From Thermoproteota archaeon (GTDB taxonomy: Archaea; Korarchaeota; Korarchaeia; Korarchaeales; Korarchaeaceae): a stretch of 64,000 nucleotides of DNA. The stretch lies in the NCBI GenBank assembly GCA_026986575.1, contig JALSOH010000004.1, forward strand, positions 448,001-512,000, read 5' to 3'. The notes under the pieces are model-generated. The model worked only from the letters and a program-made list of their open reading frames with translations. It did no database searches and had not been told where the DNA came from. Shown here one piece after another: positions 43,558-45,331 of the stretch; the first letter of the stretch is position 1, and every line of letters starts with the position of its first letter. Made by a program: the position numbers and the translations under genes.

Positions 43558-43576
43558 TTAAGCGTACTCCCTCCAA
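43558..43576 (-). repeat. att-like repeat: displaced copy of the tfs 3' end (encodes WREYA*)
   Basis: 17/19 identical to 45005-45023; 13-nt perfect core GTACTCCCTCCAA at 43564-43576. Confidence 0.8.
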
Positions 43577-43749
43577 TAATTCAACTTTTCGAGAGTATTT
43601 TTCATAGTTTCTCATCTTTATCCATAAATATGAAGATGATCCAGAGTAATTAATCGGATTTTAATTTAAATTTCTTCTTGCCCCTACCTAATCATCTCCC
43701 ACGCGATAAACAGGCCTTTAGGTAGTGCTACCACCCCACTGCTCCACCT

Positions 43750-44190
43750 ACCAAGGAACAATCCTGTTAGAAACAAACTCAGTGTAGAACAGAGTATTAT
43801 ATTCGGGCATATCTGGCCTGGATAACCTGGATAATCCCATCCTTAAATTTGAAGGCATGGTCTCTCTGCTACTAACCTAAGTTAGTATCAACCAGTCTGA
43901 AGCAGTACTACTATCCCATTATTCTACCTCATAGGGAACGCCACCACTTGCTACTATGCCACCTTCACTGGAATTACCATAGTTGTTTGGAGATGGGATG
44001 TGTCCATCGGTTATGATCACATTCCAGAGTGAGGATTGGGGATAACGTGGTCAAAGAGATGCTCGGTTCATTTGATAAGCCAGTCTCATGGGTCTTTGGG
44101 TATTGAGGTAGCAATAGCATTAGCTCGGGTGCATTTCTCTGGGGTGGGGTTAATGCCACCACTCTGGGAAGGCAAGCATTAATTGTTCCT
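43750..44190 (+). pseudogene. Probable decayed gene fragments
   Basis: Short protein-like frames broken by stops and frameshifts (ATFTGITIVVWRWDVSIGYDHIPE*, VRIGDNVVKEMLGSFDKPVSWVFGY*); small duplication CTGGATAAC-CTGGATAAT. Confidence 0.35.
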
Positions 44191-44889
44191 TTGCCCGTTA
44201 GGAGCGTGCATTACCTGTTCGTTGATGAGACGGGGGATCTCGGCTTTGACAAGAAATCCACACGGTACTTCGTTGTGGGATGCGTCTACACAACATCGGC
44301 AGCTAGACTGAGGAAGGAAATGCAGAGAATTAGGGAAAAGCTCAGGATGAAAGGCTATGCCGAAGATGAGATAAAATTCAGGTTGAGGAGGAAGGCCCAA
44401 AGAATCGAAGATGTGGCCAAACACGTCCTCAAGGAGATAGTTGAGAACGATAGGCTTGGGGATGTGAGGTTCGGAGGAATTGCATTGAATAAGGCAACAG
44501 TAAACGAGGATCTCAGGAGGAAGCCGCGGCATGTCCTAAGGAACTACATTCTAGTGCATCATGTGATATGGGGGTTGTATCGAGACGTCAACCTGAGGAT
44601 CAAGGAGGGAGACAAGTTAGTGATCATATATGACAAATCCATGGGCCCGAAATCCATATGGGAGTTCAATGAATACCTGAGGAGCAAGCACAGTTGGACG
44701 AAGGATATGCTTCACAAACCTCCAATCCACTTGGAGGTGAAACATGTGGACTCGAAGGCTGAGCTCGGGGTCCAGCTAGCTGATCTAGTGTCTGGCGCCA
44801 TATGGCAAGGTTACGAGAAGGGGAATTGGGAGTATTACGAGATCATAAGGGATAAAATCATGTTCTTAAGGCCCCTCTTTAAGAAGTAG
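44191..44889 (+). CDS. DUF3800 family protein (RNase H-like fold)
   Basis: YLFVDETGDLG, YFVVG, EIKF, IIYD, VDSK..GVQLADLVSGAI. Start TTG 44191 or GTG 44206. Confidence 0.9.
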   Translation: MPVRSVHYLFVDETGDLGFDKKSTRYFVVGCVYTTSAARLRKEMQRIREKLRMKGYAEDEIKFRLRRKAQRIEDVAKHVLKEIVENDRLGDVRFGGIALNKATVNEDLRRKPRHVLRNYILVHHVIWGLYRDVNLRIKEGDKLVIIYDKSMGPKSIWEFNEYLRSKHSWTKDMLHKPPIHLEVKHVDSKAELGVQLADLVSGAIWQGYEKGNWEYYEIIRDKIMFLRPLFKK

Positions 44890-44967
44890 CGGACGGCCCG
44901 GGTCCCACCCAGGGCTACCCCCGGCATCATCTCCCAAGCCGCTCCCCCCCATGAGGAGGATACCCGC
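44888..44967 (+). ncRNA. Candidate DUF3800-associated structured RNA
   Basis: About 73% GC by hand count directly after the stop codon; nested pairings AGCGG/CCGCT, CCGGG/CCCGG, CCC/GGG; followed by an AT-rich tail. Confidence 0.5.
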
Positions 44968-45004
44968 ATGCAAATCACACATATGTAAAATAAAATACTA
45001 GCGT

Positions 45005-45331
45005 TTAGGTGTACTCCCTCCAAGTGTATCCGCACTTGGTACAGGTGTATATCCTCGTGGGTGGTTCGTCAGCGGCCCTAGTCTGGACTATCTCCAAGTA
45101 GGCCTTGTCATTACCGCACTTGGGACACTTGGCCTCTACTATCGGCGCGGCCAGCTTCTTACCTCCTTCCGCTATTATCACGCCATCGCTGTCGGAGGCG
45201 ACCTTGGTAACTATGGCCGTTGACTTTCCCGGATTGCCCTTCATCTCGTATCCACAGCTGGGGCAGTAGTAGACGAGCTCCTTGCCCACTTTCTTGGGTC
45301 TCATGAGAGTTCCGCACTTGGGACAGAACAT
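45005..45331 (-). CDS. tfs: Transcription elongation/cleavage factor TFS
   Basis: MFCPKCG..CPSC N ribbon; CPKCG..QTRAADEPPTRIYTCTKCGYTWRE C ribbon with acidic DE hairpin. Confidence 0.95.
   Translation of the reverse strand: MFCPKCGTLMRPKKVGKELVYYCPSCGYEMKGNPGKSTAIVTKVASDSDGVIIAEGGKKLAAPIVEAKCPKCGNDKAYLEIVQTRAADEPPTRIYTCTKCGYTWREYT

Follow-up and report, generated by a model that had tools for sequence, protein, structure and literature searches.

A probable remnant of an integrative element at the 3′ end of the transcription factor S gene in a korarchaeal genome

Integration of mobile elements into the 3′ ends of protein-coding genes, with reconstitution of the reading frame, is already well documented. 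In bacteria, e14 and phage 21 occupy the 3′ end of icd, an essential gene, and leave behind a replacement end and an orphan native end, with a duplicated segment much longer than the one treated here; the parallel does not imply homology. Archaeal attachment (att) sites are mostly transfer RNA (tRNA) genes according to a review that also describes a class of integrases whose gene stays intact, the pNOB8-type or Xer-like enzymes (PMC8371274). Protein-coding genes, in their 3′-distal parts, host 14 of the 68 thaumarchaeal elements treated in PMC6563490, and one thaumarchaeal element described there lies in a gene for a Zn-finger protein, with a 13-bp att site and a replaced stop codon. Here we examine a window of 64,000 nt from a korarchaeal genome (assembly GCA_026986575.1, contig JALSOH010000004.1, positions 448,001 to 512,000). 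The interval at 43558–45004 of this window, between the gene for transcription factor S (tfs) and a convergent phosphorylase gene, is in our view, with a probability of roughly 0.88, the decayed remnant of an integrative element inserted site-specifically at the 3′ end of tfs. The product of tfs is the transcript-cleavage factor of archaeal RNA polymerase.

The present locus and the thaumarchaeal Zn-finger case, as PMC6563490 describes it, have several features in common: an archaeal host, a short att site (13 bp in that element, 19 nt with an exact 13-nt core in ours), a position at the 3′ end of a small zinc-finger gene, a stop codon attributed to the element that keeps the target frame, and validation by an empty site in a related species. 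They differ in host (here a korarchaeal genus), in target (here tfs, with the Zn-finger gene compared by its description) and in state, a 1.4-kb relic without an integrase as against a full element. The mechanism is not new; what is new is the target gene and the host lineage, the korarchaeal genus together with a neighbouring genus. A literature search, which covered PMC6563490 apart from its target-gene tables, found no described integrative element for either genus and nothing on tfs as an attachment site. A 2026 survey reports no provirus in 124 Korarchaeota genomes (PMC13573593).

A repeat of the tfs end bounds the interval

We denote the genome of the window G000, related genomes G0xx, loci L0xx and L1xx, and sequencing runs X1 to X3. 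The target gene, tfs, lies at 45005–45331 on the minus strand as an intact open reading frame (ORF) of 108 amino acids (aa). Its product matches the C-terminal TFIIS zinc ribbon (PF01096, 4.7e-20, 71.6 bits, residues 67–105) and the N-terminal RPB9-type ribbon (PF02150, 8.1e-6, 26.1 bits against a cut-off of 25.2, residues 2–29), and we take it to carry the acidic-loop motif as well. It is the single TFS match in G000, and residues 1–107 are 97–100% identical in six relatives.

The last 19 nt of this frame, TTAGGTGTACTCCCTCCAA (45005–45023, minus strand), recur as an orphan copy, TTAAGCGTACTCCCTCCAA, at 43558–43576 on the same strand. The two copies, 1447 nt apart from start to start, are identical at 17 of 19 positions and share 13 nt exactly, the core GTACTCCCTCCAA. 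Read on the minus strand, the right copy gives the functional tfs end, WREYT*, with a TAA stop (attR), and the left copy gives WREYA* (attL), probably the displaced native end. The phosphorylase stop, TGA, occupies 43555–43557, and the TTA of the left copy starts at the very next base. An earlier note on this DNA, made from its letters alone, had given the match, core, spacing, translations and abutting stops, and every one of these details is correct. Direct repeats bound the insert, one of them being the 3′ end of the target gene, whose frame has been reconstituted. The G+C content between the copies is 0.40–0.49, compared with about 0.55 around them, and each copy touches a stop codon at the edge of this low-GC interval.

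The 13-nt core occurs twice in the window, against 0.01 copies expected, and the whole 1,911,475-bp genome has no others, so the earlier note's concern that the core might be common genome-wide falls away. The repeat could in principle be a chance match, with the interval having arrived by illegitimate recombination independent of it. Exact direct 13-mer pairs no more than 5 kb apart number 16 in the window (30 shuffles averaged 3.3 and never exceeded 8), and the same 7 kb holds several imperfect repeats of 19–21 nt; because such pairs are not rare here, the repeat taken alone would not convince, and it is the placement that carries weight. The probability of a match of at least 17 of 19 positions between the 19 nt after one stop and the last 19 nt of the convergent gene is about 6e-9 to 1e-7. 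With a position-specific value of this order (about 1e-8 to 1e-7), an arrangement that recurs in G009 and G022, and empty sites that keep exactly one copy, we regard a chance origin as extremely unlikely.

Independent contigs from run X1, possibly the source run, and from run X2, which belongs to another study, span both junctions with 0–2 differences.

Empty and occupied sites in related genomes

The earlier note had predicted empty sites in related genomes in which WREYA* lies directly against the phosphorylase stop. A TFS search of 41 genomes gave matches in 40, and in G010, G011, G020 and G005 the convergent phosphorylase and tfs genes meet with their stops touching and TFS ends in WREYA*, as predicted. 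The junction, ..GCC TGA|TCA GGC.., is the same in a metagenome contig, L057, for five empty sites in all; among the 80 tfs loci kept from metagenome contigs, L057 alone is close (91%), and four others are at 70–73%. The phosphorylase itself, a PNP_UDP_1-family protein (42808–43557, plus strand; PF01048, 5.7e-26), is host DNA of the left flank, and its orthologues that abut tfs in the empty-site relatives are 80–91% identical in aa sequence. The window's orphan has the position and the Ala codon class of the single copy in these five sites, and G009 has a homologous junction.

The last residue of TFS is Thr in the window. Because Ala takes this place in the orphan, in all five empty sites and in G007, which is unoccupied, the Ala copy of the window is likely native and the Thr likely element-derived. 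Some side observations concern the wider flank. G007 has a 610-bp spacer between phosphorylase and tfs (L034 1522–2125) with a 64-aa hydrophobic ORF; it is unrelated to the other islands and contains neither a repeat of the tfs end nor the motif described below. Seven more distant species have EPSP synthase facing tfs and no phosphorylase; a phosphorylase gene between EPSP synthase and tfs is found in part of the genus alone (window 42808–43557; loci L012, L014–L019), and the DNA downstream of tfs has therefore undergone repeated change.

Downstream of the tfs stop, the window reads ACGCTAGTATTTTAT (44990–45004, minus strand), which we take as a relic of the integrase-proximal arm of the element (P arm), as the motif directly follows the tfs stop in relatives. 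G000, G009, G013, G018 and G019 each contain it a single time, in every case immediately behind the tfs stop. Across 23 loci of relatives, tfs ends in TGA at 14, TAA at 8 and TAG at 1. None of the TGA loci has the motif, whereas four of the TAA loci have it (G009, G013, G018, G019), three have a resembling sequence (G003, G004, G022) and one is without it (G012).

A larger island at the same core, as the earlier note had anticipated, is present in G009, where 3.78 kb separate phosphorylase and tfs. Its ends are those of the window island: an orphan identical at 16 of 19 positions to G009's own tfs end, followed by the window's arm sequence. This 3.8-kb island holds DUF3800, a NOV_C-like nuclease gene, two small ORFs and a HEPN/nucleotidyltransferase pair. 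The G009 orphan retains the native TGA, and the functional G009 tfs has TAA. Compared with the empty site of the sister genome G020, host and element alleles are exchanged reciprocally between attL and attR of G009, which would be the expected product of recombination between similar, non-identical sites. The G009 island also contains an exact 38-nt direct duplication just upstream of DUF3800 (L033 16269–16306 and 16355–16392, starts 86 nt apart) that is single in the window.

How old the island is bears on an alternative history, a single ancient integration followed by vertical inheritance, with the empty sites arising by repeated loss between the repeats. Such loss would recreate the tight junction exactly, the combination of motif and TAA stop is found in two sub-clades of the genus and in the second genus, and the middle of the island (43853–44164) is just 79% identical to G009, like neutral old DNA. 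The cargo gene points the other way. Between G000 and G009 the synonymous divergence (dS) is 0.057 for DUF3800, against 0.36 for EPSP synthase, 0.54 for the phosphorylase and 0.33 for tfs. An 882-nt segment containing DUF3800 is 96.1% identical, whereas the 15.6-kb collinear flank is 89.4% identical and its best 882-nt window 94.9%. In a maximum likelihood tree of the flanking genes (1833 columns, 9 taxa), the empty G020 is the sister of the occupied G009 (bootstrap 100) and G000 lies outside (94); the flanks of G020 and G009 are 95% identical, less than the 96–98% of the DUF3800 segment between G000 and G009. The 79% identity of the middle segment counts against a young island, but in a 78-nt piece of that segment the G009 copy is 94% identical to a second element in G009 and the window copy 76%, which suggests local conversion in G009 rather than age. 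Because the dS of DUF3800 is far below that of the flanks and G009's sister is empty, the island entered at least one of the G000 and G009 lineages after they split, and into the same 19 nt. Together with the two alleles held by G049, described next, these comparisons make a single ancient integration unlikely.

A further occupant is found in the other genus, g3. About 14.15 kb separate tfs from an orphan copy in G022, in what is apparently an intact element, and beyond this copy lies a host methylase gene. Orphan and tfs end agree at 19 of 23 positions, above all 100 shuffles, and the four differences are synonymous, both copies reading SWREFS*. On a second contig of G049 (G049:C5), the last 32 tfs codons end in orphan-type codons and run straight into the methylase gene; this contig reads as an empty allele beside the occupied one in the same assembly. 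Judged from G049, the element in this genus supplies the last two tfs codons and the stop. The replacement C-terminus proposed in the earlier note is thus clean in g3 and only likely, from Thr versus Ala, in the window.

Besides its integrase, the G022 element encodes a SocA/Panacea-type protein, a regulator of the winged-helix type, a zinc-ribbon protein, proteins of 693 aa (P-loop) and 470 aa (with a primase large-subunit domain), and secreted or membrane proteins. Two of its proteins are found in the same order in the 2.7-kb island of G018, which has a degenerate orphan at the phosphorylase stop (13 of 18 positions) that is significant in the position-specific sense alone. In an unbiased scan of the 6 kb downstream of tfs, just the G000 orphan beat 100 shuffles, and no orphan was found in G007, G003, G013 or G002.

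Integrases beside tfs and their loss from the window

A tyrosine recombinase gene directly follows the tfs stop in G013, where 211 aa, the N-terminal half, run off the contig end. Its likely start codon lies about 40–48 nt past the tfs stop, and the P-arm motif leads into its frame. Searching 36 genomes of the family with this query returned full-length homologues of 383–412 aa, and a full integrase lies directly downstream of tfs in G022 (383 aa) and in G049 (87% identity), so that integrase-bearing occupants of the kind foreseen in the earlier note are represented by G013, G022 and G049. A degraded copy lies beside tfs in G051, and N-terminal remnants do so in G018 and G003. Behind the tfs stop of G009, 48 nt align with the stretch that precedes the integrase gene in G013, and the window retains about 15–18 nt of this stretch. 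No tRNA gene was found within 1.5 kb of ten integrase homologues. We infer that an integrase of the G013/G022 type catalysed the event in the window.

The G022 integrase combines a PF00589 domain (2.8e-30) with a C-terminal zinc ribbon (PF13240), and its nearest solved structures are archaeal XerA (4a8e, 9.9e-17; 5hxy, 2.9e-13). In having its gene whole after integration and beside the att site, a PF00589 domain and XerA as nearest structures, it is like the lambda-paradigm integrases; it is unlike the cases treated in PMC8371274 in its C-terminal zinc ribbon and in its protein-coding target, as opposed to mostly tRNA genes. The 'suicidal' integrases of SSV, pTN3 and pT26-2 likewise belong to elements of hyperthermophilic archaea that are trapped after integration (PMC8371274, PMC7253208). 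Their gene is split on integration, however, whereas the G022 and G049 gene is whole beside the junction and matches PF00589, not PF16795. A test for the SSV-type arrangement, with a split integrase and attP inside int, was negative, the whole 383-aa gene lying beside attR in G022. Trapping in the window came about by deletion, unlike that of the suicidal integrases.

In a phage collection, the best matches of the G022 integrase are those of Archaeoglobi pleomorphic viruses (BK065158.1 and BK065156.1; 32–36% identity over 68–74%, E 1e-41 and 3e-39), whose genomes of 13–16 kb compare with about 14 kb for the G022 element. A viral nature of the G022 element was considered and set aside, as the two other proteins of it that were tested, of 721 and 693 aa, found no archaeal virus.

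Could a transposase- or casposase-type enzyme instead have produced the repeat, as a target-site duplication? Casposons are reported, with direct repeats, in 3′-distal parts of protein-coding genes such as ef-2 (PMC6563490), and the window copies differ at just 2 of 19 positions. Yet none of the inverted-repeat pairs examined, 25 of the 36 listed, joins the island ends, and Pfam, PADLOC and PHROG scans of 27 ORFs of related islands and elements, a set that does not include the smaller G022 ORFs p130, p150, p144, p91 and p90, returned no Cas1 or transposase family. A tyrosine recombinase gene lies at the junction in G013, G022 and G049, and the copies of G022 and G049 differ by synonymous recoding, which duplication of a single target would not give. 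Such an origin is hardly credible.

Returning to the integrative element, its reduction can be followed through G009. On contig C19 of that genome, adjoining a DNA ligase gene, is a fuller relative of the cargo, with a 785-aa P-loop protein, small ORFs, a 194-aa tyrosine recombinase, proteins of 457 and 501 aa, a nuclease and DUF3800. Taking 3.76 kb out of this arrangement, at a shared GCATGGnCCT microhomology, gives the G009 tfs island, and the missing stretch includes the recombinase gene of the C19 element. The window island in turn corresponds to the G009 island shortened by another 2.4 kb, the junction lying at an AATAAAA repeat. These comparisons fit the loss of the integrase that the earlier note had proposed, and would place it in deletions at short repeats.

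We considered the 194-aa recombinase (PF00589, 1e-8; phrog_9208, 6.9e-32) as the cognate integrase and downgraded it, since it is the 383-aa type that adjoins the junction in G013, G022 and G049. No tfs-like core is present in the C19 element within 5 mismatches, and G000 has no homologue of this recombinase. It fits the PHROG integrase profile just from position 69 of 241, and a 71-aa ORF in another frame overlaps its start (L047 3690–3905 and 3892–4476); the gene may be frameshifted.

Several observations weigh against our interpretation, in addition to the frequency of short direct pairs given above. Neither the ORFs nor Pfam searches reveal an integrase in the window island, and the integrase of the same family in G000 is a frameshifted pseudogene only, in three frames covering residues 103–378. 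The cargo is a mosaic: DUF3800 and its neighbours resemble the C19 element, whose recombinase is a different one, of 194 aa, and which has almost nothing in common with the G022-type element. On the simplest model the crossover falls to the left of the last codon in G000 and between the last codon and the stop in G009. The orphans of G009 and G018 neither exceed the shuffles nor are the top hits in the unbiased 6-kb scan. The bare P-arm motif pattern is no commoner than the same pattern reversed, a control with 6 hits in 36 genomes; the position of the motif alone is telling. The spacer between tfs and phosphorylase in G019 is just 27 nt long and carries the motif; we read it as a probable scar, although in some lineages the motif may be native and not a trace of integration. 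Finally, a joint skipping the island was not seen in the contigs of four runs, contigs being prone to drop rare variants.

Some of these points have a bearing of their own. Because the island lacks an integrase and G000 lacks an intact cognate copy, the window copy is a remnant and not a functional element, and with just the frameshifted pseudogene elsewhere in the genome it is presumably immobile. That pseudogene lies at G000:C4:266037–266450 (L247), about 180 kb upstream of the window. Because the cargo resembles C19 and not the G022 type, the vehicle that delivered it is not cleanly defined. The differing crossover positions in G000 and G009 therefore imply differing exchange points or heteroduplex resolution within the overlap region. 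The excised attP and attB junctions that the earlier note had suggested looking for did not appear in the contigs of the four runs, and the element arm next to attL, sought as an exact pattern, had no match in metagenome contigs (arm plus 8 nt of core) or viral contigs (arm alone).

The following sequence of events would account for the locus, and the interpretation given in the earlier note is supported by it. A plasmid- or virus-like element carried an attP resembling the closing codons and stop of tfs; the att core, at most 19 nt long, takes in the last five codons plus the stop. Recombination of attP with the host tfs 3′ end would have inserted the element between the convergent genes tfs and phosphorylase; the tfs frame would have stayed open, with its extreme 3′ end and 3′ flank now element-derived, and the displaced native end, WREYA*, would persist as the orphan next to the phosphorylase stop. 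As the recombinase, a tyrosine integrase of the lambda paradigm is most likely, about 385 aa long and encoded beside the tfs-side junction as in G013, G022 and G049. Deletions at short repeats would then have removed the integrase and nearly all other genes, leaving two short arms, about 600 bp of non-coding relics and one intact DUF3800 gene under purifying selection.

Cargo of the island and its implications

From left to right, attL is followed by a non-coding arm (P′ arm, 43577–43715) that is 95% identical to the G009 island, compared with 82% for the adjoining 158 nt of the phosphorylase gene, and that is not in the empty sites. Next comes a 137-nt piece (43716–43852) that is in the G000 island and not in that of G009, as seen in a gap between blastn segments and in the alignment. 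A non-coding module of about 285 nt, common to other loci, occupies 43880–44164, and the intact cargo gene for a 232-aa DUF3800 protein lies at 44191–44889 on the plus strand (PF12686, 8.6e-18). The 3′ flank of the cassette (44890–44989) extends to the inferred deletion junction AATAAAA; it tracks G009 beyond DUF3800 as far as the A/T-rich repeat, and from there the attR-proximal sequence of G009. DUF3800 is the sole sizeable gene in the interval, whose first 614 nt are non-coding; the interval has no tRNA, and a search of 43400–45100 against Rfam gave no match. A small minus-strand frame across attL was considered as the C-terminus of the 785-aa gene and rejected, homology being limited to about 80–100 nt further inside the island and not at its end.

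DUF3800 matches PF12686 over profile positions 1–148 of 149, with 65.9 bits against a cut-off of 21; its PADLOC match, DUF3800_VII, is weak (2.5e-6). The G000 and G009 island copies are 98% identical in aa sequence, with a nonsynonymous divergence (dN) of 0.007 against the dS of 0.057. Matches to the window query were found in 3 of 21 genomes of the genus, G000 included, and a search of genome contigs for relatives of the protein gave 43 pattern matches and 0 confirmed ones. In run X3, DUF3800 pieces (window 44487–44922) differ by 1 and 4 in about 200 nt each, and phosphorylase pieces by about 10%, again a near-identical cargo gene on a diverged host background.

The cassette, of about 0.8 kb, is found in three contexts: in the tfs island (window 44171–44970), in the larger G009:C19 element beside the DNA ligase gene (L047 8139–8929), and between an NADH-oxidase-like gene and a small gene in G007:C126 (L048 4887–5683). 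Its homology to G009:C19 and G007:C126 stops at about 44970. Copies of the 285-nt module, 70–79% identical, lie in the G009 island and, immediately downstream of the gene for DNA ligase, in G000:C6 (L148 9911–10135), G020 (G020:C20 2356–2638), G005 (G005:C105 5659–5941) and G007 (G007:C7 960–1245). A 78-nt part of the module resembles part of the 785-aa gene of the C19 element, and a consensus fold showed weak covariation; the module could be an element relic or an unknown RNA.

Genes of toxin-antitoxin or defence type occur in tfs-site islands: a HEPN and nucleotidyltransferase pair in G009 (L033 18777–19425) and SocA/Panacea-domain proteins in G018 (L036 3085–3540) and G022 (L152 11440–12126). 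The earlier note's suggestion of a cargo hotspot fits the different cargo found at this site in G009, G018 and G022.

The TAA stop together with the ACGTTAGTATTTT motif after tfs offers an annotation marker of past integration, and attB, attP and the integrase form a possible genetic tool for hyperthermophilic archaea. The locus also presents a decay series, from an apparently intact 14-kb element through 3.8-kb and 2.7-kb derivatives to a 1.4-kb relic and a 27-nt scar, and shows single cargo genes surviving. Beyond this, we put forward tentatively, at somewhat less than even odds, that the tfs 3′ end is the dedicated attachment site of a still-active integrative family, possibly of proviruses, in Korarchaeia, with a synonymously recoded attP, and a hotspot for defence and toxin-antitoxin cargo. 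If so, the coexisting occupied and empty alleles of G049 would reflect ongoing integration or excision.

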